A DNA stretch of 32,000 bases, from positions 13,401-45,400 of the forward strand of contig JAKJJU010000022.1 of assembly GCA_021713295.1 (NCBI GenBank), written 5' to 3'. The notes under the pieces are model-generated. The model searched no databases and was not told the DNA's origin. It saw only the letters and a program-made list of their open reading frames with translations. Below, piece by piece: positions 16,857 through 32,000 of the stretch. Numbering within the stretch: position 1 is the first letter of the stretch; every line of letters begins with the position of its first letter. The DNA comes from Thiotrichales bacterium 19S3-11. Its GTDB lineage: Bacteria; Pseudomonadota; Gammaproteobacteria; Francisellales; Francisellaceae. Made by a program: the position numbers and the translations under genes.

Positions 16857-17936
16857 ATGACTAGGCTATTTATTATTTGTATTACTTTTTTTTGTATAAG
16901 TTCACTTAGCTATTCGATGAATAAAGAAGACTATATCCATACTTATAATTGTTCTATTAATTTAGCAAAAAAAGGTGATACGAACGCACAATATAATTTA
17001 GGTTATCTTTATGAACATGGGTTAGGTGTCAAAGGAAATTATCAAAAAGCAATCTATTGGTATAGAACTTCAATTAAAGGTGGTAATAATACAGCATTAT
17101 TTAATTTAGCGCGTATGTATGAGCATGGATTAGGCGTTAGAGAAGATCATCAAAAAGCATTTCAGTTATACTTAAAATCTGCAAAATTAGGTTATGCTAA
17201 TTCTCAATTGCTTTTAGGTTCAATGTACTTTTTAGGCAAAGGCATTAATAAAAATTATGAAAAGGCATATTTCTGGTATGAAAAAGCTGCTCATCAAAAT
17301 AATATTTTAGCGCAGCGGAATCTAGGTCTTTTATATTTAGATGGTATTGGTGTTAAAAAAGATGATCAGAAAGCTAAGCATTGGTTAGAGTTAGCCTATA
17401 AAAATGGTGATGTTGAATCTAAACGCATATATGAATCTGACAAAAAAATTAAATCATATGGTAAATATATTGGTTATTTTGTTGCTGGTTTGCTTGTAGT
17501 TTCTTATATTTTATTATTAATTTTCTTATTTCGTCTTGGTCGATCAATTAAAGATAAGCGACTTAAAAATTGGTTTGTTTGGTTAAGCTTAGTTCCAGTT
17601 ATTAGTATAATATTTTATTTATTATTTATTTTTAAACTAAGGTCGGTGTTAAAGTCTATTTGTTTAGACAAAGATACAACATGCTTTAAACAAATCAAAT
17701 CATTTAATCAATACATTATAATACACTTATGCTTTATGATTTCTTTAGCTATCTCTACTTGGTTATTTATTTTTGTAGATGGTATCAGTCCTAATAGTCG
17801 TTATTTAGCAATTGTCTTACTATCAGTTCATTGCTTTTTTTATTTAGTAGTCCTAATTTTAACCGTCATTGTTATTGTGAAATCAATACGTTTGAGAAGA
17901 GAAATTTTAAAAATAGGAGCGAGGCAATCAAAATGA
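16857..17936 (+). CDS. Sel1-repeat (SLR/TPR-like) protein with signal peptide and C-terminal four-TM domain
   Basis: Five tandem repeats of the Sel1 signature (A.YNLG.LYE.G.GV..N..KA..WY...A..G). N-terminal hydrophobic signal. Four hydrophobic helices after about residue 205. Not a canonical F tra gene. Confidence 0.8.
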   Translation: MTRLFIICITFFCISSLSYSMNKEDYIHTYNCSINLAKKGDTNAQYNLGYLYEHGLGVKGNYQKAIYWYRTSIKGGNNTALFNLARMYEHGLGVREDHQKAFQLYLKSAKLGYANSQLLLGSMYFLGKGINKNYEKAYFWYEKAAHQNNILAQRNLGLLYLDGIGVKKDDQKAKHWLELAYKNGDVESKRIYESDKKIKSYGKYIGYFVAGLLVVSYILLLIFLFRLGRSIKDKRLKNWFVWLSLVPVISIIFYLLFIFKLRSVLKSICLDKDTTCFKQIKSFNQYIIIHLCFMISLAISTWLFIFVDGISPNSRYLAIVLLSVHCFFYLVVLILTVIVIVKSIRLRREILKIGARQSK

Positions 17937-18112
17937 AAACTAAATTAAACACAAAAGGTTTTTCAAAAAAAGTGTATAGCAAAGATGAAGTTAAAGCGAT
18001 TCTTGATTCGTTGGATACACGCTTTTTCTTTCGCTCACCATCTAAATTAAAAGAGCCAACGCAATCTAAAAATGATGAGGTTAATAAGCATCAAAGTAAG
18101 GTGAAGTCATGA
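17933..18112 (+). CDS. Hypothetical 59-aa basic protein, translationally coupled between the Sel1 gene and traD
   Basis: The ATG at 17933 overlaps the Sel1-gene stop (ATGA) and follows AGGAGCGAGG. Its own stop overlaps the traD ATG (ATGA at 18109-18112). No recognisable domain. Confidence 0.4.
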   Translation: MKTKLNTKGFSKKVYSKDEVKAILDSLDTRFFFRSPSKLKEPTQSKNDEVNKHQSKVKS

Positions 18113-20061
18113 GCGATAAAACAAAATCATTTATACGAGGCGGTCAGCTATTTTTGTATAAATCAAGAATGTTTGTTCAAGTCAGTAAGCGTATTGGAAA
18201 GTGGGCGATTTTAATTTATTTGTTATTGGTCTTATTTTTAATTGCTTATTTGACAGGCTTTAATGATCTAAGAATCATGAGCGTTCAAGTTTACTCAACT
18301 TTATTAAACAGTGTGGGCTTAGGTGCAACACATATTTGGACAAGTCCTGAAAATCCAGCCTTAAGTTTTAATGCACATGATATTGCAACGAATTCAATCG
18401 ATCAATCTTATGCATGGGATGCATGGGGCAGATTTAAAATGCATCTGATTTGGTCATTGATCTTTGGCGGTGTCATCTACCTTATCGTTATACAGTTATT
18501 TATGAACTTCTTTGTTAAGGTTGGTAATAAGCACAGTAAAGATCAATTAATTTCAGGTACACGATTAGCAGTTAACATTAAAGAGACGATTAAATCAGTG
18601 AAACGTTCAAAAAATGGCGCAAGTGATTTAAAAATTGCTAATGTTTTACCAATTCCTAAATTATCTGAGTTTCAAGGATTTCTTTATCATGGTTCGACAG
18701 GTTCAGGTAAATCACAAGCGATTATGAGATTTTTAGATGAAATTAAACGTTCAGGTGATGCAGCAATTATCTACGATAAGGAGTGTACTTTAAAGCCGTT
18801 CTTCTTTGATTGTGAAAAAGACATTGAATTAAACCCATTATCGACACTATGTGCTAATTGGGATATTTGGCAAGAATGCGAAACACCAATAGAAATGGGT
18901 GCTTTGGCAACGTATTTGATGCCTAAATCAATTCAAGGCAGTGACCCTTTTTGGGTGGATGCTGCGCGTACCATTTTCACAAGTGTTGCATGGGAAATGA
19001 GACATCAAAAAGATCGTTCATTGATTAAGTTATTGCAAACGCTTTTAACAACCACATTAGATGAAATGCGTAACGTTTTAAAGGGGACAGAATGTGAAAA
19101 CTTAGTGAATGAAAACATTGAAAAAACTGCCATTTCAATTAGAGCAGTTATATCAACGTATACGAAAGCTTTACGATTTATGGAAGGCTTAAATAAAGAT
19201 GAAACTAAAAAGCCTTTTGCCATTAAGAATTGGGTTAAGTCACAATTTGAATCAGAAGAAGCCAAAAGATCATGGTTATTTATTACTTCACGCGCCAATA
19301 TTCACGGTGAGATTAAGCCTTTAATTTCAGCATGGATTGGTATGGCAATGAAAGGGATACAAAGCTTACCTGTTAATAATAAGCGTAGGTTTTGGGTCAT
19401 TATTGATGAGATGGCAAGCTTAAATCGTTTAGAGGATTTTTCAGATATTGCAGCAGACATTCGTAAATTTGGTGGTTGTATTGCTATTGGGATTCAATCG
19501 ATTAGTCAGTTAGATAATCTCTATGGTCGAGATGAAGCAATGGCAATTATTGATCTACTCAATACTGTCATGTACTCAAGATCACCCAAACAAAAAATTG
19601 CTGATTGGGTATCACATGATTTAGGCGAACAGATCATTGAAGAGGTTAGAGAAAGCCAATCATACGGACCGAATGCCATTCGTGATGGCAATACCATTTC
19701 ACGTCAACGAGTGACAAGGCGTACTGTTGATGCTGGCACAATCATGCAATTAGAAGATTTAGAGTTCTTTGTACGTTTAGTTGGCAATCATCCGATTACT
19801 CGTTTGAAACTAGATTATGTATCAAACCGTAAGGTGTTATTAGAGCAAGCATTAGTTGAAAGAGCGATTGATTGGGATGCGATCAAAAAGATTGAGCTTA
19901 AGGCAGAAGAAATTGAAGCTCACCCTGACTGTGATAAATCAATTAAAGATGAGCAATTATCAGGTGATGAAAATAATTACAATCAATCTTCTAATGAAAA
20001 AATACACAATCAAGATGAGTCTGCGATTGTAGCATCAAATAATGAAAAAACGCGAATGTAA
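18109..20061 (+). CDS. traD: TraD, type IV coupling protein (VirD4/FtsK-like ATPase)
   Basis: 650 aa with two N-terminal TM helices, Walker A GSTGSGKSQ and Walker B VIIDEM. Located directly upstream of the relaxase gene. Confidence 0.92.
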   Translation: MSDKTKSFIRGGQLFLYKSRMFVQVSKRIGKWAILIYLLLVLFLIAYLTGFNDLRIMSVQVYSTLLNSVGLGATHIWTSPENPALSFNAHDIATNSIDQSYAWDAWGRFKMHLIWSLIFGGVIYLIVIQLFMNFFVKVGNKHSKDQLISGTRLAVNIKETIKSVKRSKNGASDLKIANVLPIPKLSEFQGFLYHGSTGSGKSQAIMRFLDEIKRSGDAAIIYDKECTLKPFFFDCEKDIELNPLSTLCANWDIWQECETPIEMGALATYLMPKSIQGSDPFWVDAARTIFTSVAWEMRHQKDRSLIKLLQTLLTTTLDEMRNVLKGTECENLVNENIEKTAISIRAVISTYTKALRFMEGLNKDETKKPFAIKNWVKSQFESEEAKRSWLFITSRANIHGEIKPLISAWIGMAMKGIQSLPVNNKRRFWVIIDEMASLNRLEDFSDIAADIRKFGGCIAIGIQSISQLDNLYGRDEAMAIIDLLNTVMYSRSPKQKIADWVSHDLGEQIIEEVRESQSYGPNAIRDGNTISRQRVTRRTVDAGTIMQLEDLEFFVRLVGNHPITRLKLDYVSNRKVLLEQALVERAIDWDAIKKIELKAEEIEAHPDCDKSIKDEQLSGDENNYNQSSNEKIHNQDESAIVASNNEKTRM

Positions 20062-20177
20062 TCTTAAGGGGTATTTTTTTTGAAAATGAGTAGTAAAAAT
20101 TTACCTCCATAAATGAGCAATATGAGTTTTTCTCAATCGTGCTAATGCAATTGTTCATTTAAATTAACTCGTTGAAA

Positions 20178-20240: not shown

Positions 20241-23200
20241 ATGTTATCAATTGGCATTGTTACTTCATCAATGGATATACACAAATATTTCATCGATAAA
20301 GATAACTACTACTTAACCGATAAATCAGAGATTAAAGAATCATCACGATTTTATGGCAAAGGTGCTGAAGCTTTAGGCATTAAAGATAAGGTAGTTGAAG
20401 AAAAACTATTTTTAGATTTACTAGAAGGTCGATTGCCTAATGGTCAACAAATAGGTGTTAGCGGTAAAAGTCACAGGCCAGCAACCGATATTACCTTATC
20501 AGCGCCAAAGTCATTTTCAGTGATGGGCTTAATTGCTGGTGATGATCGCCTAAAGGATGTTCAAAGAAAAGCAGAAGAAAAAGTTTATAGTAAAATTGAG
20601 TCACTTTATGCAGAAGCTAGAAAAACGGTTAACGGAGTTACCTCTTATGAAAAGACAGGTAATTTAGTTATTGCCTTGTTTCCTCACTCATCATCAAGAG
20701 AGAAAGATGCTCAAATGCATACGCACGGTGTTATTTTAAATATGACTATGAGAAATGATGGACAGTGGCGCGCATTATCTTCAAGACAAAAGACTGATTT
20801 AATCAATATTGAGCATGGTTTTAGGGAATTAATTTATCAAAATCAGCATTACTTAGGCATGATTTATAATAGTGAGTTAGCCAAAGGTGCAATTGATTGT
20901 GGTTATGAGCTTGAAGTTTTAGACAAATATGGCAATTTCAAAATCAAAGGTTTATCGGATGAGTATTTAAAAAGCCAATCAAAAAGACGTGAACAAATTT
21001 TAGATATGGCGAAAGAAAAAGGTACAATGACACCTAAAGCTTTAAGTGCTTTCTCTAAAGCATCACGTAAAATTAAAGAGGCTGTTACACCTGATAAATT
21101 AAAAGAAGCATGGCAAGAAGATGCCAAAGCGCAAGGTGTTGATTTAAAAAAAGTGCTTGATCAGTCAATTCAGCGAGTTAATGATAAAGGCAATCAGCAT
21201 ACACAATCTGTATCAAGTTCATTACATAAAATCAGTCAAAATGCTAAAGAGGCAATTAATGATGCCATTACGCATTTATCGCAGTTTTCAGTTAAGTTGC
21301 AGCATGGCGATATTGTAAGACAAGCCTTTATTTTTGGTGGTGGTGTGATCAACCATGAAGAATTAGAACATATTATTGAAACCAAACAAAAACAACGAGA
21401 ATTAATTGGATTATCTGACCAATACTACACAACGAAAGCGTTAATTACAGAAGAAAAAGCATTTAAAACGGCAATGAAGCAAACAAAAGCTGTTTCATGG
21501 TCAAAAGATATTGCTCAATCTGGATTGATTGCTGAAAGTTTAAAAAGTAATGATCGTATACAGATTATCAATACCAAAGGCTTAAAAAATGAAACGAATC
21601 TAATCAATGATGCGGTAAGAATAGTAGAAGCAAACGGTTTAAATGCTTATGTTTTGCATCCGAATCAATCACGTCTAAATCTCTTAAAAGAAGATGTCAC
21701 AAGAGATAAAAAGAATATTTGGCAGTATTTTAAAAACTATTTTAAAGGTGATCTATTACAAACAACAGGTAAGTTTGAACATGAATATAAGGCTAGGTTA
21801 AATAGTCCGTTTAGGTCAAAGAAACAAGATATGATCTTTGTTACTGACAGTCAAAAACTGTCTTATGAAGGATTAAGTAAGCTTAATGATTTAGCCGAAA
21901 AAGGTAATGCTAAGCTGATTCTGTTAAATAACACGGAATCAACACAAGGTTTTAGAAGTGGTAACCCAATTAAAGTATTACGTTCATGTGGTGTTGCTGA
22001 ATATAACTCAAAGACAATTAAAAAAGAGGTCTTAGTTGAGATTACACAAGCCGTACAAACCAATAAATTATTAGCTGAACATTACACTTCAATTGATAGA
22101 GATAAACGCAATTTAATACCGATTGTTGCATCAACGAACAAAGCACAGACAGATTTAACGCATCTAATTCGCAATCATTTAAAAGATCAAGGCGAATTAT
22201 CCATTCAGGAATATAACTATCAAACTTTATCAACGAAAGGCTTAAGTGACACTGAAAAGAAATATTTAAAATGCTATTCAGTCGGTGATCTAATTACGTT
22301 AAAGCCATTCACTAAAGATCAACAAGCGTATCTTATCAGTGACATTGATAAGGAAAATAAAACCTTATCGCTTATTTCAATTAATGCTAAAGATAATAAA
22401 ACTTATCAGTTATCACACGATGATCTATTAAAAACAGAGTTTCAAATTAACAAAAAACAAACACTTTCAGTGTCAGTCAATGATCGTTTAATGGCGACTC
22501 GTAACCTTTATATTAAAGCTAACCATTTAAGCAATGAACGAGTTAAAATTGATAAAAATAGCGTTATTGAAGTTGAATCAATTGCTAAAGATGGCTTAAG
22601 AATTAAGCATAATGAGCAAAGTTTATGGCTTTCAAATGAAGCATTAAAAGCATCAATGCTTGATCATGGTTATGTCATTAAACCGCATCAATTAGACAAA
22701 GAATTTAATCAGGTGTTTACTTCATTATCTGGCTATCAAGTTAATCAAAATAGTATTGGTGAATTAAAAGAATATGCAAAAAATATTCATCTATTTACGG
22801 ATAACAAAGAGAAAGCATCAAAATCTTTAGATTCAGAAAATATTGTTTGGGTTGCAACTGATATAAAGGCTCTACAAAAAAACACCAGTTACAACCCAAC
22901 AGTAAGGAATGACTTGTCAATCGAAAAGGACTTACAAGTAGTAGCTAATGCCCTATCACATGGGTGTGTTAAATCAACAGAGAAAGGGCAATTAACCACT
23001 CCTAAAGATCATACAAAAACATTGCTTAATACACAAGATGATCACAATAATATTAATGCCGATGCACGCTCTAATCAAAGTGTCACCAAAGGAATAGATG
23101 TCGTGCATACGGCAGTTTCCTATGGTATCGCAAAGTTAAGTGAAAAAGAAGCTTCTTTTTCAATGGAAGATTTACTTAAAGAATCAATGACCTATGCATT

Positions 23201-26200
23201 AGGTTATACGACAGGTGATGAAATCGAAAAAGTCATTGATGAAAAGCGCGCTAACGGTGAGCTATTAATTAATGATCGTCACGTCACAACGAAAGCAATT
23301 TACGAACTTGAGAAATCAATTATTGATAATATAAGTGATGGTCACAATCAGGTTCAATCAGTTGTTAATGAGTTACCTAGTTTACGTGAAGGTCTCACTC
23401 AAGGTCAAAAAGATGCAATATCGCTGGCATTAACAACAAAAGATCGATTCATTGGCATTCAAGGTTTAGCTGGTACTGGTAAAACAACCATGATGAAAGA
23501 ATTAAGAGAAAAAGCTGAATCAAATGGCTATGAAATTGTTGGTATTGCACCAACACATAAGGCGGTTCAAATGTTAGATGGGTCAATGAATGAAAAATCA
23601 TCAGGTGAACGCTTTAGAAATGCTGGTATTCCAGTCATGACCGCACATGCCTTTATCAACCAAGAATTAGACAAATACAATGATAAAACGATCTTTATTA
23701 TTGATGAGTCTTCAATGATTGGTAACCGCTTATATCATGGCATCCAACAGAAGACAAAAAGCTTAAATGCTCGAACAATTTTTGCTGGTGATATCAAGCA
23801 ACAAGCTGCCATTGATCAAGGAAAACCGCAAGAGTTGAGCCTAAATAATGGCTTAAAATATGCCTCAATGAATGAAATTATACGTCAACGTAATAGTCCA
23901 GTTTTAAAGAAAAGTGCTGAGTTAGCTGCCAGTGGTAAGGCATCTGAATCATTAACTAATTTAGAAAAAATAAACCCATTTGATCATATCAAACGTAAAA
24001 ACTATTATGCTAGTTCAACTGAATCTTTCGTTGAAATTGCGCCTGATAAAGACACAAAAGGCAATGTAATTTTAGGTGATGATGACAAACCTAGGTATAA
24101 CAACCTATATCAAGCGATTGCTAATGATTACTTAACAAGAGTTACAGAGCAAAGAGGTCATACCGTTGTTATTGCTAAAACCCATAAATCACGTGCTGTC
24201 ATTGATGAAAAAATAAGAGATGGCTTAATCAAAGAAAGTGTGATACATAGCTCACAACCAGTAACAAGGCTTGCATCAAAAGATTTAGAAAAGGTTGATT
24301 TATTAATTGCTAAAAACTACGAGGTCAATGATATTATTAAGTTTGATCGTAGCTTTTCAATCGCTAAGAAGGGCGATTTAATGAAAGTAACTGATATTAA
24401 TAGTGCAGATAATAAGCTTACTATTTTCAATGAAAAAGATGGCAATACCTATACGATCAACCCTGCTAAATTAGCAACCAATGCTCAAATATCTCTTTAT
24501 CAGCAAGTTGATGCTAATTTAGGTATTGGTGATAGAGTTCGATTAAGAGTAAGTGATATTCCACGTGGTTTTACAGGTGGTCTTGAATACAAAGTTGAAG
24601 CAATTAAAGGCGACTATGCAACACTTAAAAATGACACAGATACCTTAAAAATCAACCTAAAGAATAGAGAAGATCAGATATGGGATTATGCCTATACCAA
24701 TACAACGTTTAGTGTTCAAGGTGATACCAAAAAATATGCAATTGGTCTTGAATTATTTGAAAATGATAGAGGAAACTACATTCAAATCACACGCGCTAGC
24801 GAACATGCAATTATCTATACTAGTAATAAGGCAAAGTTATTAACACAACTAGATGACGAGAAGGTTAAGTATGAAGCCAGCAAACGATCGGCGTATGAAC
24901 TCTTTGGTCAAAATAAAGAAAAAAATGCATCCAGCAAACAATCGGTATATGAATTCGTTAATCAAAAGAATGAAGACAAAAACCTTAAAATCCATGATCA
25001 AAAGGCTCAAGAAAGCCAGCCAGTTCATGAAAAGAAAACAAGTGAAATAACGCTAACTAAACCGAAAATCAAACCAGTTTTAGCAGATGATTTAAAGCCT
25101 CTTTTGAAAGAAAGATCAGAAGAATTAGCCATACATTTATTAGGTGAGCCTAATCAACAACTATCAAATCGTAGTCAATTAAGGTTCGGTCACAAAGGCT
25201 CATTATCAGTAACTATTTCAGGTCAGCATCAAGGAAAGTGGCGCAATTTTGAGACAGGCGAGCAAGGCAATGCTCTTGATTTAATTAAGGCAGAAATGAG
25301 CTATTCTAATTTTAAAGATGTCTTAAATTATGCTAAAAACTTCTTAAATTATGAGCCAACAAGTGAGCCAGTTAAGCAAGAATCAGTTGAGAAAGTAGCA
25401 AAAATTGATCTTGAAGAAACACAACGAAAAGAGAAAATGAAACAATATGCTACTAAATTATTTAACAATTCTAAGCCAATTAAAGGCACGCTAGCTGAAA
25501 AATATTTAAGCCAATCAAGAGGATTAAATAACTATCATAATGCCGATATTCGATTTTTACCTGCTATTTCTGGCTATGCTAAAAACAAAAAAACAGGTGA
25601 ATTTGACATTAAAGTCTATACACCAGCAGTCCTTGCATTTGCCAAAGATAAGGATAATCAAATTAACCATGTACAAGTGATTAGGCTTGATAGAGACGGT
25701 AATAAAAACAAAGAAGTTAAGATTGCTAAGCAAACCTATGGCTCAATGAATAGCTTTGCTGTTGAGTTAAATAACAAGGCAAATAAAGAAGTAACCTACC
25801 TTACAGAAGGCGTTGAAACGGGTTTATCAATCCTAAATGTTAATAAAAAAGCGGATGTTTTAGCTGTCTTAGGTAAGTCAAATTTTGCTAATATTGACCT
25901 AGAAAAGATAGCTGATAAGGTTATTTTGGCACTTGATAATGACGGTATTAGCAAAACTTTTTCTGATAAAACAATTGTAGATGCTGTCACACGATTACAA
26001 GAAAATGGTAAAGATGTACAAATCATTATGCCTGAAAAACCTAAGTCTGACTTTAACGATGTTTTAAAAAATGAAGGCTATCAAGCACTTTCAAAACAGA
26101 TTAATCAATCCTTATCAGCGAAAGATTTAAATCAAGTATCACTAAAATTAGCCAGTGATCATTTAATTAAATCTGAAAATATTACCTTAAATCAAGCTTT

Positions 26201-26435
26201 ATCTTTGATTGATAAAGACATTAAATATAAAGATTTTGATGCCCATAATAAAGTAAAAATCAATGATATTGATCACAAGTTACTTAAAAATATTGACCAA
26301 AATTATGCTATTAAAACTGATAAAAATCTTAATAAACAGATTGATACTGTCCTAAATGAGCAAGTTAAATATGATCAAATTGAAAATATTTTACCTGAAA
26401 AGACGCTTAAAATAGATAAGGAAATGGAACTTTAA
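20241..26435 (+). CDS. traI: TraI, MOBF relaxase-helicase with an additional C-terminal primase-like/Toprim module
   Basis: The start is moved to the ATG at 20241, 7 nt after AAGGAG (20228-20233). The N-terminus is co-linear with remembered F TraI: Y16, DKDNYY, LLEGRLPNG, HRPATDITLSAPKS, GNLVIALFPHSSSRE..AQMHTHGV. Helicase Walker A GLAGTGKTT (23463-23489) and FIIDESSM. C-terminal ~330 aa: RFGHKGSLSV..GKWRNFETGEQGNALDLI (cysteine-less primase finger-like), then Toprim YLTEGVETG and ALDNDG. Confidence 0.93.
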   Translation: MLSIGIVTSSMDIHKYFIDKDNYYLTDKSEIKESSRFYGKGAEALGIKDKVVEEKLFLDLLEGRLPNGQQIGVSGKSHRPATDITLSAPKSFSVMGLIAGDDRLKDVQRKAEEKVYSKIESLYAEARKTVNGVTSYEKTGNLVIALFPHSSSREKDAQMHTHGVILNMTMRNDGQWRALSSRQKTDLINIEHGFRELIYQNQHYLGMIYNSELAKGAIDCGYELEVLDKYGNFKIKGLSDEYLKSQSKRREQILDMAKEKGTMTPKALSAFSKASRKIKEAVTPDKLKEAWQEDAKAQGVDLKKVLDQSIQRVNDKGNQHTQSVSSSLHKISQNAKEAINDAITHLSQFSVKLQHGDIVRQAFIFGGGVINHEELEHIIETKQKQRELIGLSDQYYTTKALITEEKAFKTAMKQTKAVSWSKDIAQSGLIAESLKSNDRIQIINTKGLKNETNLINDAVRIVEANGLNAYVLHPNQSRLNLLKEDVTRDKKNIWQYFKNYFKGDLLQTTGKFEHEYKARLNSPFRSKKQDMIFVTDSQKLSYEGLSKLNDLAEKGNAKLILLNNTESTQGFRSGNPIKVLRSCGVAEYNSKTIKKEVLVEITQAVQTNKLLAEHYTSIDRDKRNLIPIVASTNKAQTDLTHLIRNHLKDQGELSIQEYNYQTLSTKGLSDTEKKYLKCYSVGDLITLKPFTKDQQAYLISDIDKENKTLSLISINAKDNKTYQLSHDDLLKTEFQINKKQTLSVSVNDRLMATRNLYIKANHLSNERVKIDKNSVIEVESIAKDGLRIKHNEQSLWLSNEALKASMLDHGYVIKPHQLDKEFNQVFTSLSGYQVNQNSIGELKEYAKNIHLFTDNKEKASKSLDSENIVWVATDIKALQKNTSYNPTVRNDLSIEKDLQVVANALSHGCVKSTEKGQLTTPKDHTKTLLNTQDDHNNINADARSNQSVTKGIDVVHTAVSYGIAKLSEKEASFSMEDLLKESMTYALGYTTGDEIEKVIDEKRANGELLINDRHVTTKAIYELEKSIIDNISDGHNQVQSVVNELPSLREGLTQGQKDAISLALTTKDRFIGIQGLAGTGKTTMMKELREKAESNGYEIVGIAPTHKAVQMLDGSMNEKSSGERFRNAGIPVMTAHAFINQELDKYNDKTIFIIDESSMIGNRLYHGIQQKTKSLNARTIFAGDIKQQAAIDQGKPQELSLNNGLKYASMNEIIRQRNSPVLKKSAELAASGKASESLTNLEKINPFDHIKRKNYYASSTESFVEIAPDKDTKGNVILGDDDKPRYNNLYQAIANDYLTRVTEQRGHTVVIAKTHKSRAVIDEKIRDGLIKESVIHSSQPVTRLASKDLEKVDLLIAKNYEVNDIIKFDRSFSIAKKGDLMKVTDINSADNKLTIFNEKDGNTYTINPAKLATNAQISLYQQVDANLGIGDRVRLRVSDIPRGFTGGLEYKVEAIKGDYATLKNDTDTLKINLKNREDQIWDYAYTNTTFSVQGDTKKYAIGLELFENDRGNYIQITRASEHAIIYTSNKAKLLTQLDDEKVKYEASKRSAYELFGQNKEKNASSKQSVYEFVNQKNEDKNLKIHDQKAQESQPVHEKKTSEITLTKPKIKPVLADDLKPLLKERSEELAIHLLGEPNQQLSNRSQLRFGHKGSLSVTISGQHQGKWRNFETGEQGNALDLIKAEMSYSNFKDVLNYAKNFLNYEPTSEPVKQESVEKVAKIDLEETQRKEKMKQYATKLFNNSKPIKGTLAEKYLSQSRGLNNYHNADIRFLPAISGYAKNKKTGEFDIKVYTPAVLAFAKDKDNQINHVQVIRLDRDGNKNKEVKIAKQTYGSMNSFAVELNNKANKEVTYLTEGVETGLSILNVNKKADVLAVLGKSNFANIDLEKIADKVILALDNDGISKTFSDKTIVDAVTRLQENGKDVQIIMPEKPKSDFNDVLKNEGYQALSKQINQSLSAKDLNQVSLKLASDHLIKSENITLNQALSLIDKDIKYKDFDAHNKVKINDIDHKLLKNIDQNYAIKTDKNLNKQIDTVLNEQVKYDQIENILPEKTLKIDKEMEL

Positions 26436-26758
26436 GCACTCTGCATACCTTCAATATAAGCATCAGAATTTGACTCAATCATATGAATTAATGTCTTAGC
26501 ATCAAAAAAATTACCTGTTGTTTTACTACGTTCAAAAACGCAATTTAGAATTTCTTTAGCAAGGTAATTGTTCTCTAGCACCATCTTTACAATTGGGTCT
26601 TCTACTTTTTCATCTGCTTTTTTAGTGCTAGCTTCATGAACTTTTAAGCCTAATTCAATCATATCAATGGCAAAATTTAGTTGTCCCTTCTCATCAGAAT
26701 TACAACTTTCTTGAATTTTTTGCCATATATTTGTGCCAATATCTAATGTTATTTCCAT
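26432..26758 (-). CDS. traM: TraM-like relaxosome accessory / signalling protein
   Basis: 108 aa. ITLDIGTNIWQKI....AIDMIELGLKVHEAS parallels remembered F TraM VNLYISNDAYEKI....ASMLLELGLRVHEAQ. It lies next to the predicted oriT. Confidence 0.6.
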   Translation of the reverse strand: MEITLDIGTNIWQKIQESCNSDEKGQLNFAIDMIELGLKVHEASTKKADEKVEDPIVKMVLENNYLAKEILNCVFERSKTTGNFFDAKTLIHMIESNSDAYIEGMQSA

Positions 26759-27225
26759 CTATTTTTGTCCTTTTCAATTGGTATTGTTTTCATATTTCTA
26801 TGATTTATTGAGCAATGAAGTGTATCATAATTGTAAGTTTGAAATGCTCCATATGTATTTTTAAGTGTCTCATCAACCGATGATTTTACTACATTGAATA
26901 ATTGCTTATTGTCATTTCTAGCGTATATTAATTCTTGTGTATAGTTAGATACAATTTGCATATCACAAGCCATATTTGGAATACTAACATGAATCTGTTC
27001 TAGCATTTTTTTCATCTTTAAGATTTCAGAATTAAGATCAATTTTTTTATCGTTTGATTGTGATTCTTGATCATTCATTCTTTCGCGAATTAATAATTTC
27101 ATTGCACTTGTTAATAATGGTTTTGAGTTAACATTAAATAAATTATTTTCAATTGCTAACTTTTCTAAAAATGTTTTTTCCTCTCTAGTTAATCGAATCG
27201 AAGTAGGTGGTATTTTGTTATCCAA
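26749..27225 (-). CDS. Ribbon-helix-helix DNA-binding protein; candidate TraY-like relaxosome accessory factor / autoregulator
   Basis: TTG start at 27225, 8 nt after AAGGA. The N-terminus TSIRLTREEKTFLEKLAIEN has the beta-strand/helix pattern of RHH proteins (compare F TraY LTMRLDDETNQLLIAAKN). It is the first gene next to the palindrome array and overlaps the traM-like gene by 10 nt. Confidence 0.55.
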   Translation of the reverse strand: MDNKIPPTSIRLTREEKTFLEKLAIENNLFNVNSKPLLTSAMKLLIRERMNDQESQSNDKKIDLNSEILKMKKMLEQIHVSIPNMACDMQIVSNYTQELIYARNDNKQLFNVVKSSVDETLKNTYGAFQTYNYDTLHCSINHRNMKTIPIEKDKNRWK

Positions 27226-27260
27226 AGTTCATATCCTTTTATCAAAATTGAAAAATCAAA

Positions 27261-27516
27261 GTATCACAATGTGATGCACTATTATATTTTATCGTATCAC
27301 AATGTGATGCGCAATACATTTCACTTATTTTTAAAAATATAAATCACATATAAAATATATAGTTAAATGTGTATCACAATGTAATAATTTGTATTGCTAT
27401 GTGATGCGCTTTGAGTTAGTTCTGTCATACTCATGTAATACTTTATGTATCACAATGTAATCTATTGAGATAATTAACTAATTTATATACGTTTTATTAA
27501 TATTACTCTGTGATAC
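27261..27516. promoter_or_regulatory. Operator array: repeated 13-bp palindrome ATCACA-A-TGTGAT within GTATCACAATGTGATGC
   Basis: Two perfect 17-mers at 27261-27277 and 27294-27310 (33-bp spacing). Variants at 27371-27385, 27391-27407 and 27447-27461. Half-sites at 27423-27430, 27434-27441 and 27509-27516. Confidence 0.8.
27286..27314 (-). promoter_or_regulatory. Sigma70-type promoter for the RHH/traM operon
   Basis: On the minus strand: -35 TTGCGC (27314-27309), 17-nt spacer, -10 TAAAAT (27291-27286). The spacer is filled by palindrome copy 2, and copy 1 lies just downstream of the predicted start. This is an autorepression-like layout. Confidence 0.55.
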
Positions 27517-27601
27517 AAGATTATCTGTATATTATTTAAACATTTTAAAGTATTTAAAATAAGCTAAAATCTATGATATATATAGTCTTTTTTGAATAAA
27601 C

Positions 27602-27726
27602 AAAGGCAAAATCAATTGCGTGATGTGTGGGTGCTTTCTCTCGGTATCAGGTAATGTTAAATTCTAATGCGTATCCTCTGGAATCTTTAAAGGCTTCGTT
27701 TGCCAACTGAACACAAAAGGCAAAAT
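27602..27726 (+). other. oriT: oriT core with predicted nic site (T27628|G27629) on the + strand
   Basis: 27616-27637 TTGCGTGATGTGTGGGTGCTTT compared with remembered F TTTGCGTGGGGTGT|GGTGCTTT and R100 TTTGCGTAGTGTGT|GGTGCTTT. Flanked by an 11-bp direct repeat AAAGGCAAAAT (27602-27612 and 27716-27726) and an inverted TTTGCC (27699-27704). Confidence 0.7.
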
Positions 27727-27742
27727 TTCTACGCCGATTGAG

Positions 27743-28054
27743 TGAAAATTAATAATACAAATATCTCAACTTTTGAAAACTTAAAATTCAAAAAAATGTA
27801 TCATCTAAATTTTGAAAATAACAAAAATAGATAACTTAAAAATGATCAATTTGAACAAACTGAATTTTGATTTTTTGCTTATTCTTAATTTTTAAAATTA
27901 ACCCATTTTTGAAAATTACAGGGACGATATTTTAACAATTTATAACTATCAAAATCGCTAAAATTAAAATCATAGCTATTGAAGAATTTGAAAATCTTAA
28001 TGAAAACTTAAATGCAAATGACAACCACCTAAAATGCAACCTCGATGTGAAAAT
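27743..28054 (+). repeat. Seven same-orientation TGAAAAY heptamers (mostly TTTGAAAAT) in the first ~430 nt after the predicted nic
   Basis: Copies at 27743, 27774, 27813, 27910, 27989, 28001 and 28048. My rough base-composition estimate gives well under one copy expected by chance. Confidence 0.6.
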
Positions 28055-28144
28055 CCCCCTGCTTTGGTTGGTGCTTTTAGTCCAGCTAAAATATTATTTT
28101 ATATACTTCTTTAAATATTATTATATTTATTTTTTTAAATAGTT

Positions 28145-28369
28145 TTAAAATTCTTTCTCACTGACCTTTGAGAAAACTGATTTTTTCTCTTGCTCAAACT
28201 CAAACAAATAATGATCTAACTCTTTCTTAGTTTGAAATCTTTTAAGAACAGTATAAGCAACACCTAAACCTTGGACGTCTTCCATAAAAATATATTCACC
28301 ATCTTCTCTATCAATGACGTAATACTCAAACTTTTTTTCATCTCTGTTAATAATACTTAGTTTAACCAT
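28145..28369 (-). CDS. Hypothetical 74-aa acidic protein, second gene of the J-domain operon
   Basis: ATG at 28369, 9 nt after AGGA and 11 nt after the J-domain gene stop. No recognisable domain. Confidence 0.5.
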   Translation of the reverse strand: MVKLSIINRDEKKFEYYVIDREDGEYIFMEDVQGLGVAYTVLKRFQTKKELDHYLFEFEQEKKSVFSKVSEKEF

Positions 28370-28380
28370 TTTTATAATCC

Positions 28381-28884
28381 TTAAATAGCTTCTAAATAAT
28401 TTTTATTTTCATTCATTTTTGTACTATTAAATTTCTCTCTTATTTCCTCCATACTCCACTCTTGATTATTATTTCTATGTTTTTTGCCTTTGGCTTGTTC
28501 AGGACGATAAAACCACATTTGCTTTTTTCTTGCCCATTTAAAACCAGCCTGTTTAATTATTTCTTTATGTGCTTTAGTCTCACCTGACAGCCACACCCAT
28601 AACCCACATATTTCTATAACAATACCAGTTAAATTTTTAACGGCATTTAACGCTGTGTTTAAAATTTCTGGGTATTCTGTCATTTGAATATTTTCAAAAA
28701 CTTCGATTTCTTCAATATCTTTTAAAATTTCATAAGCACAATTAATTACTTTCATCATTTCAATACCTGCTGGGTTTCTATCAGGATGAAATTCTTTTAC
28801 TTTTAATCGATAAGATTTTTTAATATCACTAGCTGTAACCTTTCCTTGTAAACCTAAAATTAATGCAGCTTCAAACTTGTTCAT
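28381..28884 (-). CDS. J-domain (DnaJ-like, HPD motif) protein with a W-rich basic C-terminal domain
   Basis: The start is moved to the ATG at 28884, 6 nt after AGAGG. J-domain helices II/III flank the HPD motif (ASDIKKSYRLKVKEFHPDRNP...MMKVINCAYEILKD). No Gly/Phe or zinc-finger regions. The C-terminus reads GLWVWLSGETKAHKEIIKQAGFKWARKKQMWFY. Confidence 0.8.
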   Translation of the reverse strand: MNKFEAALILGLQGKVTASDIKKSYRLKVKEFHPDRNPAGIEMMKVINCAYEILKDIEEIEVFENIQMTEYPEILNTALNAVKNLTGIVIEICGLWVWLSGETKAHKEIIKQAGFKWARKKQMWFYRPEQAKGKKHRNNNQEWSMEEIREKFNSTKMNENKNYLEAI

Positions 28885-28925
28885 TTTCAACCTCTATGTT
28901 ATTTTATTTTGTGTTGCCACACTTC

Positions 28926-29015
28926 CTTTTTGAACAAGCCATATGCGAATCTTTGAAAGGGTGGCTTGCCACTTGCGTAGCCCTTGCAAAGATGAGTGTG
29001 CTTGTTATAAAAAAG
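28926..29015. promoter_or_regulatory. Imperfect ~90-nt hairpin carrying -35 TTGCAA / -10 TATAAA; candidate Frpo-like single-strand promoter (and a rightward dsDNA promoter)
   Basis: Hand-paired stems: 28926-31/29010-15, 28933-39/29000-06, 28949-55/28987-93 and 28957-61/28981-85 (25 bp). There is an internal loop in the spacer and a 3-nt bulge inside the -10. -35 at 28984-28989, 16-nt spacer, -10 at 29006-29011. Confidence 0.5.
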
Positions 29016-29086
29016 ACATATTAATTAGTCGCTTACGACACAATCCTTTGTTGGCTTAAACGGTGTTAATCAGCGTTCTAATTAGC

Positions 29087-29104
29087 TTTGTACACGTGTA
29101 CAAA
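29087..29104. promoter_or_regulatory. Perfect 18-bp palindrome TTTGTACAC/GTGTACAAA upstream of the ParB-like gene (parS-like or operator)
   Basis: Read directly. It shares the CACGTG core and T/A-rich arms with the chromosomal parS consensus TGTTTCACGTGAAACA. It lies 17 nt upstream of a candidate -35 TTGATT (29121-29126), with -10 TAAATT (29144-29149). Confidence 0.55.
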
Positions 29105-29192
29105 ATTACTTTTATTACAGTTGATTGTTATTTTAAATGATGTTAAATTGAATTTATATTTAAGTATTTAATTCAATATATTAAGGAAGAAT

Positions 29193-29948
29193 ATGGATAT
29201 TATCGAAATCAATCCCCAACTTTGTAAACGTTGGCAATTTGCTGACCGATCTAACTTTGAATTTGGCGATACTCTCAAACTCGGTACTGACATCAAAAAC
29301 AACGGTCAAGTTGAGCCTGTTATTGTCAGAAAATCAAATGATTCTAAATTTAAGTATGAGGTAATTGCTGGTAGCCGTCGTCATCGAGCTTGTCTTGAAA
29401 CTGACATACTAATGAAAGCTATCGTTAAAAATATCTCTGATCAAGAAGCTTTCTTTATGCAGCTTAGGGAAAATGAGAAGCAACCTATTTCAGACTATTC
29501 ACGTGGAATGAATTTCAAAAAATTAATTGATAGCGGAAAATCAACAGTTGAAGAGTTGTCAAAAATCAATCAATGCTCAAAAGAGAAAATATATCACCTA
29601 CTCTCATTTGCAAGCGTACCAACACAAATATGGGATGCTGTTGCTAACATGAGCAAAGTCTCTTGTCGTTCTGCTAGTACAATCAATGCCCTTGCTAAAA
29701 AAGGTGATCAATACGTCAGTGCTTTAATTGATATTGCAGAAGAAATCAGAAAAGGCGCTGGGAGCAGAAAAATTGAAAACTTAGTTAATACCATAGTCAA
29801 CGGTGAGCAAAAAATTGATGACCAAAGACAAATTGTATCTAAAGAGGGTAATGTGATTGGTAAGTGGGTTAAAAATACAATTGTTTTTGACAAATCTTTT
29901 ACAGTAAACCAAAAAGATATTGAAGATTTATTAACCGAGTATCTTTAA
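29193..29948 (+). CDS. ParB/Srx-fold N-terminal domain protein (orphan ParB-like; no ParA in the window)
   Basis: AAGGAAG RBS. VEPVIVRK....YEVIAGSRRHRAC is the ParB box II / arginine-patch pattern (GxRRxRA). A probable HTH follows (STVEELSKINQCSKEKIYHLL). Confidence 0.75.
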   Translation: MDIIEINPQLCKRWQFADRSNFEFGDTLKLGTDIKNNGQVEPVIVRKSNDSKFKYEVIAGSRRHRACLETDILMKAIVKNISDQEAFFMQLRENEKQPISDYSRGMNFKKLIDSGKSTVEELSKINQCSKEKIYHLLSFASVPTQIWDAVANMSKVSCRSASTINALAKKGDQYVSALIDIAEEIRKGAGSRKIENLVNTIVNGEQKIDDQRQIVSKEGNVIGKWVKNTIVFDKSFTVNQKDIEDLLTEYL

Positions 29949-30106
29949 AAACAAGCACAGTAATTCCACCCGTGGCATCATTTCTCTCTCTATTCTTTTA
30001 AGTACTGTGCCTGTACTTGCATACTAAGTTAATATCTATATGATATCAATCGTGTTATTCATATATTTTCATGATATATTTACTGTATATTTTTGGATTT
30101 AAGCTC

Positions 30107-30322
30107 ATGATTAGACTTGAAACTAACAAACGCTACTATTTAATTAACTTGACCAAAGATTTATTTGATCAGTGGTGTGTTGTTTGTACATGGGGTTCTA
30201 AGCTATCAAGATTAGGAAATCAACAAACTCATCTGGTAGACAATGAAATATCAGGTCAAAGCCTAATTGCAAAAATCATTAAAACTCGCAAGAGTCATGG
30301 CTATGAAATTATCGAAGATTAG
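30107..30322 (+). CDS. Small WGR-domain-like protein
   Basis: KRYYLINLTKDLFDQWCVVCTWGSKLSRLGNQQTH....AKIIKTRKSHGYEI follows the WGR-domain pattern (rYY.l.l..dLFg.w.v.r.WGRiG..G.......K.k.GY). The start is uncertain: 30071 in the track, or the ATG at 30107. Confidence 0.5.
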   Translation: MIRLETNKRYYLINLTKDLFDQWCVVCTWGSKLSRLGNQQTHLVDNEISGQSLIAKIIKTRKSHGYEIIED

Positions 30323-30383
30323 TACATTAGTTCGTTAAATAATGTTATAATATAACCAACTGTTTTACTTTAAATTTATTACT

Positions 30384-31337
30384 ATGATTGTTAGAAAAAA
30401 TAACACAGACGTTAACAAGCCAAAGTACGACCAATACTTTAAATTCAATTTAGAAAAAAAAGAAATTGCCGAGGAAATTATCAGGTCTGTTTTACCTAAA
30501 GAATTAATTGAGTTTGCTGATTTCTCAAAAATGAAGCTTGAACAAAGTGAACATATTGATGAAGAGCTAAGAAAATTAATTACTGACGTGCTTTGGAGTA
30601 TACCAATTAAAGGCGAAAAGGCTTATATATACATCCTTGCAGAACACGAAAGTAGCCTTAAAAATCATCACTTACTACCTTTTAGGTTTCATAAGTATAT
30701 GATTCGTATTATGGAAAAGCACATTGCTAAAGGTAATAAAAAGTTACCTATTGTCATACCCGTGTTGTTTTATCATGGTGCAAAACAAGGATACCCTCAC
30801 AGCCTATCAATCTTTAATTGCTTTGAAGATAAAGAGCTTGCAAAAAAATATGCATTCCAAGATATCACATTAGTTGACCTTACCGTCCTAGATGAAAAAG
30901 AAATTGCTCTACAAGGATTTCGATTTTTCTTTCAATTGGTGTTAAAATATTCAAGAGACAAAGAATTAGCCAAACGATTAGTAGATATACTAGAAAAATA
31001 CCCTAATCTGGCAAATTATTTTGATGGTAAAGACTTTAAAGATGCATTTGTTCAATTATTAATGAGTTTAGATTTAGACTCTAAACATACTGCTAGAGAA
31101 ACTTTAAAGAAATTAGATGATTTAACTGGAGCTGATATTATGACGCTACGTGAACAATGGGAAGCTAAGGCTACTAAAAAAGGTGTTAAACAAGGGCGTA
31201 TTCAAGAAAAACAGGAAACGGCTAGGAATATGTTGGCTAAAGGTTTAGATACTAAATTGGTTGCCGATTGTACTGGTCTTGAACTTGAGACTGTTCTTGA
31301 GCTTAAGAAAGATGTTGATAATCAGAAGAAAAGATAA
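30384..31337 (+). CDS. Rpn-family (YhgA-like) PD-(D/E)XK recombination-promoting nuclease / 'putative transposase'
   Basis: FKFNLEKKEIAEEIIRSVLP...ITDVLWSIPIKGEKAYIYILAEHESS...LLPFRFHKYM...LPIVIPVLFYHG is the characteristic Rpn N-terminal nuclease core. It has the repeated helical C-terminal tail. Preceded by an extended -10, TGtTATAAT, at 30343-30351. Confidence 0.8.
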   Translation: MIVRKNNTDVNKPKYDQYFKFNLEKKEIAEEIIRSVLPKELIEFADFSKMKLEQSEHIDEELRKLITDVLWSIPIKGEKAYIYILAEHESSLKNHHLLPFRFHKYMIRIMEKHIAKGNKKLPIVIPVLFYHGAKQGYPHSLSIFNCFEDKELAKKYAFQDITLVDLTVLDEKEIALQGFRFFFQLVLKYSRDKELAKRLVDILEKYPNLANYFDGKDFKDAFVQLLMSLDLDSKHTARETLKKLDDLTGADIMTLREQWEAKATKKGVKQGRIQEKQETARNMLAKGLDTKLVADCTGLELETVLELKKDVDNQKKR

Positions 31338-31381
31338 ATAATTATGTAACGCTACATCATTATATTTGTGATTTTTCAAAT

Positions 31382-32000
31382 TTAGCTGACATGTTTAATA
31401 TTCCAATAATTTGATAAATATTCTTCAATTTTACGGTAATTATCATAAGATAATTCAATCTTACCTTCTGGGCTTCCCAAATCCCTAACCCAATCCATAA
31501 CGAAATTATCAAGGCGCTTCTTTCTATTTTTTGCTGCTAAACGATTACTTAAAGTGCTGCCATAGTCTTTTCTATCACATCTAATTAAACGTAATAGTAA
31601 TCTAAATGATCGATAGCTGGCCTCCACATTTGTCGCCATTCCGCCAAAAATTATGCGATGTTCATTAAATAAGTGACGACTTAAAAAAACATGAGCAGTG
31701 CCAAAGCATTCATCTACATAACTAGCTATATCTGAACCATAATAAATTCCTGCTCTGCGTGTTAAATTAATTTCTTTACTCTGAACTATTTTAGATTCAT
31801 CAAACTTAATGACTTTACTGTCTGCTTCTACCAGTTGCTTGCGAAATTTTTCAATCCCTTCACATGTATAGTACATATCAAAACCATAATCTTTTGTTTT
31901 TTGAATACTATTCTGAAAAATCTTGCCTATGTTCCTATCATTACATGTCAAAATTTGTTTTGATTTTTCTGCTTCTTCTTCTTTTTTAATCCGTTGTTTT
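31382..32000 (-). CDS. Hypothetical protein, N-terminus cut by the window end (possibly DUF2786-type leading-region protein)
   Basis: The minus-strand frame stays open upstream of the TTG at 31951 to the window edge (…KQRIKKEEEAEKSKQIL-TCND…). The family assignment comes only from a vague recollection of similar plasmid proteins. Confidence 0.5.
   Translation of the reverse strand, partial: KQRIKKEEEAEKSKQILTCNDRNIGKIFQNSIQKTKDYGFDMYYTCEGIEKFRKQLVEADSKVIKFDESKIVQSKEINLTRRAGIYYGSDIASYVDECFGTAHVFLSRHLFNEHRIIFGGMATNVEASYRSFRLLLRLIRCDRKDYGSTLSNRLAAKNRKKRLDNFVMDWVRDLGSPEGKIELSYDNYRKIEEYLSNYWNIKHVS

Follow-up and report, generated by a model that had tools for sequence, protein, structure and literature searches.

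In IncF plasmids the order of the transfer genes is oriT-traM-traJ-traY-traA and onwards. The F recognition sequence at nic, TTTGCGTGGGGTGTGGTGCTTT, is the oligonucleotide used for F TraI36 by Hekman et al., with nic lying between T141' and G140' (PMC2504302). The scissile phosphate of F is positioned by an intrastrand three-base interaction of T-1, G-2 and G-4, and TraI reads mainly the 5' side of the site, substitutions at +1 being tolerated in transfer (PMC2504302). We found TTTGCGTGGGGTGTGGTGCTTT in the record of plasmid F (NC_002483) on the strand opposite traM, and the R100-type sequence, TTTGCGTAGTGTGTGGTGCTTT, in an IncFII plasmid (L004). Both nic sequences cited in the original prediction agree with the plasmid records and with PMC2504302. 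As regards discrimination between the two, exchange of TraI residues E153, Q193 and R201 shifts F towards R100 specificity (Harley and Schildbach 2003, as used in PMC3245843).

Here we describe a comparable locus in a stretch of 32,000 nt (∼35 % G+C; the window, meaning the whole of the DNA analysed), in which an F-type tra operon fills positions 1-26435 of the + strand and ends with traD and traI. From sequence comparison, we consider it very probable that 27226-27760 is the oriT of an F-type conjugative element and that a motif within this region is the nic site of its TraI (Table 1). The most likely scissile bond is that between 27628 and 27629, which we propose with somewhat less assurance than the oriT itself. 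Our search of the literature found no nicking or mobilization experiment for any member of the clade.

Table 1. Features of the predicted oriT and of the regions on either side of it (positions in the window)
Feature	Position	Strand	Basis or detail
traD, coupling protein	18109-20061	+	Pfam TrwB_AAD_bind, E 1.5e-100
traI, MOBF relaxase and helicase with C-terminal DUF7146 and Toprim (primase-like)	20241-26435	+	
108-aa probable distant TraM homologue	26432-26758	-	Pfam Tra_M (below cut-off), sequence profile matching TraM structures
158-aa protein of an unannotated family: RHH-like N-terminal segment, helical hairpin, disordered tail	26749-27225	-	Alignments, AF2 model
Six palindromic iterons, GTATCACAATGTGATGC and variants	27261-27517		At 27261, 27294, 27371, 27391 and 27447; inverted copy 27502-27517
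Promoter-like site ATCACA-16-TATAAT, overlapping the iterons, upstream of the 158-aa gene	27281-27308	-	Promoter scan
Conserved block AAGCTAAAA, ∼60 nt 5' of the nick	27561-27569	+	Nearly invariant, 8 sequences
Conserved block TTTGAATAA, ∼30 nt 5' of the nick	27591-27599	+	
Conserved GGCAA; GCAA (27606-27609) can pair with TTGC (27616-27619)	27605-27609	+	
Predicted TraI recognition sequence 5' of nic, ATTGCGTGATGTGT	27615-27628	+	F match, conservation
Sequence 3' of the nick, GGGTGCTTTC, with which the transferred strand is predicted to begin (5' end)	27629-27638	+	
Conserved block CTACGCCGATTGAGTGAAAATT, ∼100 nt into the leading region	27729-27750	+	
Predicted leading region, first into the recipient	27629-32000	+	Orientation logic from F, PMC11541004
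74-aa ORF	28145-28369	-	
J-domain gene	28381-28890	-	
ParB_N gene	29193-29948	+	
WGR gene	30071-30322	+	
YhgA-like transposase gene	30384-31337	+	
DUF7168 gene	31382-31951	-	

The relaxase and the tra operon

The tra genes of the window form a complete set of long ORFs, with traI, traD and the accessory genes intact. The traI ORF opens at a TTG at 20172, and the ATG at 20241 (MLSIGIV...) aligns with the N-terminus of F TraI; the protein is 2087 or 2064 aa long, respectively, and the public annotation has 2064 aa. Its Pfam domains are TrwC (E 5.5e-66), an AAA_30 helicase and, at the C-terminus, DUF7146 and Toprim. The relaxase had been described as clearly F-TraI-like, and the comparisons agree: the best solved-structure match of the relaxase domain was F TraI (1p4d, E 6e-49), with TrwC (1omh) at E 4e-43. 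The domain is 35 % identical to that of F, and the catalytic Tyr, Asp and His residues are kept, with Y16, Y23, Y24, D81, H146, H157 and H159 all conserved relative to F TraI and Y17 replaced by phenylalanine.

The C-terminal DUF7146 and Toprim_3 domains (25400-26435 in the window; compare 16964-17977 in L001) were also found in most relatives, and in the Piscirickettsia salmonis plasmid p1PS1 they form a separate gene directly after a shorter traI. To our knowledge, a relaxase that brings its own primase into the recipient is unusual among F-type systems. Additionally, the tra operon includes a gene for a 359-aa Sel1-repeat protein (16857-17936), placed between traT and traD, where P. salmonis has unrelated small genes. 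At the end of the operon, traI (+) and the TraM-like gene (-) share four bases at their stop codons (26432-26435), leaving no space for a terminator between the convergent units.

Sequence and conservation of the candidate nic site

On the + strand, positions 27615-27638 read ATTGCGTGATGTGTGGGTGCTTTC, i.e. ATTGCGTGATGTGT followed by GGGTGCTTTC. The original prediction had placed an F/R100-like nic core at 27616-27637; the core is indeed present, the first A and last C of the quoted sequence each lying one base outside that interval, which itself reads TTGCGTGATGTGTGGGTGCTTT. This 22-mer is single-copy in the window with up to three mismatches allowed. From -13 to -1 the site is identical to F at 11 of 13 positions, and the same count was obtained for R100. 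For the 11 nt immediately 5' of the nick, the nine matches to F that had been claimed were recovered (mismatches at -6 and -5), and nine positions likewise match R100 (mismatches at -7 and -6). The 3' side corresponds, again as predicted, to F GGTGCTTT with one extra G. The window site has the core TGCGT-N7-nick ending in GTGT/G (the slash marking the nick), and T-1, G-2 and G-4 are all present and invariant across the 11 related sites.

When judged by resemblance to F alone, the match is weak and not significant: an F-like 13-mer (≤2 mismatches) occurs once in the window, and at least once in 22 of 100 shuffles. The significance of the site therefore rests on its position, strand and conservation. 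That motif identity alone cannot identify a nic site is also evident from the P. salmonis plasmid p3PS6, in which an exact F 11-mer, GCGTGGGGTGT (L014, 24735-24747, minus strand), lies within a G+C-rich IS30-like transposase fragment and was discarded as a chance occurrence. A further partial likeness was seen ∼440 nt into the leading region of the window, where TTTGGTTGGTGCTTTTAG (28062-28079) contains an F-like 3' half of nic (TGGTGCTTTT, 10/10 against F). It has no 5' recognition half, is probably a product of chance and was rejected as a second site.

Relatives of the element were found by a reference-genome scan and by look-ups of homologues of both small accessory proteins; DNA searches of PLSDB with the oriT region, near and distant, gave nothing useful. 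In PLSDB, the plasmids of Piscirickettsia salmonis came closest, their relaxase domains sharing 55-58 % identity with that of the window. Our alignment comprises 11 sequences, namely the window and 10 related elements from P. salmonis plasmids, Cysteiniphilum (two), Fastidiosibacter and metagenomes or MAGs. Compared with each other, the relaxase domains of these elements are 54-68 % identical and the accessory proteins 25-50 %, whilst the remaining intergenic DNA is unalignable. Every element for which enough upstream DNA was available has the sequence TGCG(T/A)G(A/G)TGTGT on the strand opposite the 158-aa-type gene and 280-400 nt upstream of it. At this syntenic place the 14-mer is identical or differs by one or two mismatches in the 10 relatives; in p3PS6, which reads ATTGCGTGATGTGT/AGAGCTAATC, it is identical. 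GCAA and TGCG.G.TGTGT are invariant in the 11-sequence alignment. Within the 1.15-kb intergenic region of the window (27226-28380), 12- and 14-mers covering 27615-27630 were the only ones to recur (≤1 mismatch) in all four lineages tested, and none of 300 shuffles yielded a 14-mer shared by four lineages. [quoted passage not shown] The motif is under strong purifying selection in these lineages, the flanks of which have diverged completely.

On the 3' side, the +1 base is G in 9 of the 11 sequences and A in the other two, with no conservation further 3'. The GGTGCTTT resemblance is not kept even in the closest relative, L015, where the 3' side reads GGGGCTTTC and the T of GGTGC is lost. Conservation is one-sided, stopping where F is nicked, as expected of a relaxase site given that F TraI reads mainly the 5' side. 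Both this boundary at GTGT and the distance of 7 nt from TGCGT to the nick support the cleavage point originally predicted, between 27628 and 27629. Alternatively, the region could be oriT with the scissile bond shifted by one or two bases (TG/GG or GG/GT), a reading that we regard as improbable. Its appeal lies in the extra G relative to F, which would allow the F register to be set from 3' of the nick, as the 3' half aligns with F GGTGCTTT only when one G is skipped; furthermore, the predominance of G at +1 amounts to weak conservation one base past the predicted nick. In disagreement with such a shift are the loss of the 3' half in relatives (L015 included), the 7-nt spacing between TGCGT and the nick in both F and R388, and the invariance of the U-turn bases G-4, G-2 and T-1, all of which set the register from the 5' side.

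A variant of the module was observed in L024 (8234-8294) and in L025 (MAG GCA_964352985.1), both accessory genes being present and the core, GTTGCGAGATGTGT/GG, having A at -8. In these a DUF932 gene is found on the leading side, as in F, and NRPS and MFS genes stand in the place of traI, with no traI within 9 kb of the module. The element concerned may be mobilizable or rearranged.

Organization of the predicted oriT

The motif is located ∼390 nt upstream of the minus-strand accessory genes and on the opposite strand, with the iterons in between, a layout shared by the 10 relatives. F has the same geometry: with its nic strand taken as +, traM is on the minus strand at a distance of 309 nt to the left, and the leading region extends to the right (NC_002483). 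The accessory genes converge on traI and are transcribed away from the motif, and throughout the clade the oriT module follows traI instead of heading the tra operon. This clade-wide gene order upholds the original proposal of an oriT downstream of traI, not upstream of the tra operon; a location at the head of the operon describes IncF plasmids rather than defines a nic site. In the complete plasmid p3PS6, the region upstream of traA contains two hypothetical genes and cargo genes, with no traM, traJ or traY and no second motif; the search of this plasmid returned nothing within two mismatches of the 13-mer save chance matches in coding sequences. By analogy with p3PS6 only, a second site would not be expected at the head of the element's own tra operon either. 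The further claim that the + strand is transferred and the right-hand side is leading follows from the F geometry and fits the orientation of genes to the right: the 74-aa ORF, the J-domain gene and the DUF7168 gene lie on the minus strand, and genes past the end of the window are oriented likewise. The predicted transferred strand would thus be their template, which is the orientation expected for leading-region genes (PMC11541004).

Of the two accessory proteins, the 108-aa one is probably a distant TraM. It scores 24.9 bits against Pfam Tra_M (PF05261), below the cut-off of 27.7, and 6/6 relatives match the same family, also below the cut-off; many of its 68 homologues carry a precomputed PF05261 assignment. 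A profile of 43 sequences of the family matched TraM structures of pED208 (3on0, 4.5e-4) and R1 (1dp3, 4e-3), as well as 4qpo (9e-3), and Foldseek with the monomer model gave no match. The 158-aa-type gene is the neighbour of the motif in every element. Pfam and PDB sequence searches with the 158-aa protein gave no significant match (NikA-like, E 0.98), and Foldseek with its AF2 model, which has a pLDDT of ∼90 over residues 10-50 and an N-terminal two-helix unit preceded by IRLT, gave no fold match. We presume it to be a relaxosome accessory protein and TraY analogue with a putative RHH domain; no TraY or TraJ homologue was found. The family is otherwise ∼30 % identical, and yet its C-terminal tail, MKTIPIExDKNxWK (26749-26790), is invariant and predicted by AlphaFold to be disordered. 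The tail looks like a docking peptide for another component of the relaxosome or T4SS.

Between the accessory genes and the motif, eight of the nine window matches in the iteron search fall within 27261-27517, and none of 100 shuffles reached nine matches. Every relative has its own lineage-specific palindromic iteron, GTAxxAC-N4/5-GTxxTAC, in the same place. The iterons are probably bound by the TraM-like protein, the 158-aa protein or both, and their lineage specificity is the pattern expected if such sites co-evolve with TraM-like or RHH proteins, as in F sbm. As promoter-like matches are not enriched over shuffles in such AT-rich DNA, the promoter-like site, which overlaps one pair of the iterons, is only a candidate promoter.

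It is also conceivable that the F-like motif is itself a double-stranded operator or promoter element, of the accessory operon or of a leading-region gene, with its likeness to F coincidental and nic elsewhere. In favour of this it may be said that an F-like 13-mer is expected in ∼1 in 4 shuffled windows and that exact F cores do arise by chance. We nevertheless hold it to be very unlikely, considering that the motif stands beyond all the iterons and far from the start codon, that its strand and side are those expected from F, that it is conserved on one side only, up to the place where F is nicked, and that the intergenic regions offer no other candidate. Just as improbable, in our judgement, is that the region is a disused relic, the element being defective or mobilized from another origin. 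In favour of a relic, the type given by PLSDB/MOB-suite to the related P. salmonis plasmids is 'mobilizable' and not conjugative, and L024 carries the module with no traI nearby; the intact and open tra genes of the window, and the strong purifying selection on the motif despite fully diverged flanks, argue against it. A nic site in the traD-traI spacer is made improbable by the lack of conservation of the spacer, in which P. salmonis has a dsbA gene, and one upstream of traA by complete p3PS6, where the motif has no close copy among the cargo genes that precede traA.

With the motif taken as nic, several further elements surround it. The TTTGAATAA block is possibly an IHF-type or accessory-protein site, its counterpart in L010, read by eye, fitting YAANNNNTTGATW. 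The GCAA/TTGC inverted repeat (4 bp, -3.2 kcal/mol) pairs in the ssDNA folds of lowest energy for the window and 5/10 relatives; as both arms are invariant, they provide no covariation evidence for a hairpin. It looks like the counterpart of the F inverted repeat GCAAAAAC/GTTTTTGC 5' of nic. Some relatives have a second hairpin, mutually exclusive with the first, in which the recognition sequence would fold on itself: such a fold is possible in L010 (17632-17653; ACACACCA-TTGCG-TGGTGTGT, 8 bp), L013, L016 and L026, with the A or G at -6 paired by T or C in the partner arm. It is weak in the window (27611-27628, ATCA/TGAT) and absent in P. salmonis.

The original prediction had also pointed to AAAGGCAAAAT direct repeats and an inverted TTTGCC bracketing the site. 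These are present, with exact copies of AAAGGCAAAAT at 27602 and 27716 and TTTGCC at 27699-27704, and a third exact copy of AAAGGCAAAAT occurs at 3453, within a tra gene. Chance can account for them, however: seven copies were counted with ≤1 mismatch against 3.1 expected, 6 of 100 shuffles reached seven, and within the first copy only GGCAA is conserved. They were accordingly set aside as independent evidence. On the leading side, eight elements have the CTACGCCGATTGAGTGAAAATT block at a fixed +101 to +111 nt 3' of the predicted nick, within leading DNA that is otherwise unalignable, and a loosely similar sequence, GGAGTGGGTTAAATT, occurs in F at about +45. An Rfam scan of 26400-29200 returned nothing credible.

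Proposed mechanism, specificity and comparison with known systems

By homology, the HUH relaxase domain of TraI would bind the + strand as ssDNA at (A)TTGCGTGATGTGT, the GTGT end forming a U-turn as in F TraI and TrwC, and Tyr16 would cut between T27628 and G27629 and stay on the 5' phosphate of G27629. The TraM-like and 158-aa proteins may bind the six iterons, repress their own promoter and assemble the relaxosome, which would hand the site to TraD. The + strand would then leave 5' to 3' from 27629, the right-hand side being first into the recipient and the tra operon, ending with traI, being last. Within the operon traA would enter before traI, the reverse of the order in F. In the recipient, TraI would rejoin the strand at the regenerated site. 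The mechanism as such is already known; what is added is the rearranged placement of the module, a different accessory protein in place of TraY/TraJ, and a primase-fused TraI. The locus provides a precise predicted oriT and nick for an F-type plasmid family that includes plasmids of the salmon pathogen P. salmonis, in a little-studied host group of marine and fish-pathogen bacteria. Mobilizable vectors, prediction of leading regions (where anti-defence genes cluster) and better oriT annotation become possible as a result.

With respect to specificity, the site combines an F-like G at -7 with an R100-like T at -5, and has A at -6, where F and R100 both have G. The -6 base is A in the window, P. 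salmonis and L013, and G in L010, L011, L022 and L026; one element of the clade has A at -8. At the specificity residues the window TraI has D153/Q193/N201, compared with E153/Q193/R201 in F and D/R/Q in R100, and is a mosaic. A distinct specificity variant of the F family is therefore plausible. No clean covariation was seen between TraI residue 201 and base -6, N201 occurring with both A and G. A bolder reading, in which the primase-fused TraI clade is an orthogonal F-family specificity class with -6 as discriminator, and 27729-27750 is the site at which the Toprim domain, brought in with TraI, primes complementary-strand synthesis in the recipient, strikes us as doubtful. In any case, the F/R100 model of ssDNA discrimination by relaxases is extended by these mosaic residues and by the natural variation at -8, -6 and +1.

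Among known elements, the P. salmonis plasmids p3PS6 and p1PS1 share with the window the order traD ... traI (Toprim fused or adjacent), two small minus-strand genes, the intergenic region and a J-domain gene. They differ in their iterons (GTATTACCAAAGTAATAC), their 3' flank (AGAGCTAATC) and their proteins, which are 29-58 % identical. No oriT is annotated in these plasmids, and the literature searched held no description of one. R388 (MOBF11, TrwC) has the same HUH relaxase fold family and the same spacing of TGCGT plus 7 nt before the nick (GGTGCGTATTGTCT/A, PMC4176350), with 9/12 bases before the nick matching by hand count, and a hairpin 5' of or across the recognition sequence, as in R388, is possible in L010, L013, L016 and L026. 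In R388, however, TGCGT lies in the proximal arm of IR2, a strong hairpin recognized by TrwC, which is weak or absent here; moreover, the R388 accessory protein is TrwA, and its oriT heads the trwABC operon. The likeness to F, R1 and R100 (MOBF12) extends to the relaxase family, the core TTGCGTG..GTGT/G, the U-turn bases, which are the same (-4 G, -3 T, -2 G and -1 T), a putative inverted repeat, GCAA...TTGC, on the 5' side of nic (4 bp here and 8 in F), a nic that lies opposite in strand to a TraM-like gene and precedes it by 300-400 nt, the interval holding repeated sites for protein binding, and a leading region 3' of nic. Unlike these plasmids, the window has no traJ or traY and a 158-aa protein in the oriT-adjacent position, its module follows traI in convergent orientation whereas that of F heads the tra operon, and its TraI carries a C-terminal primase-like domain.
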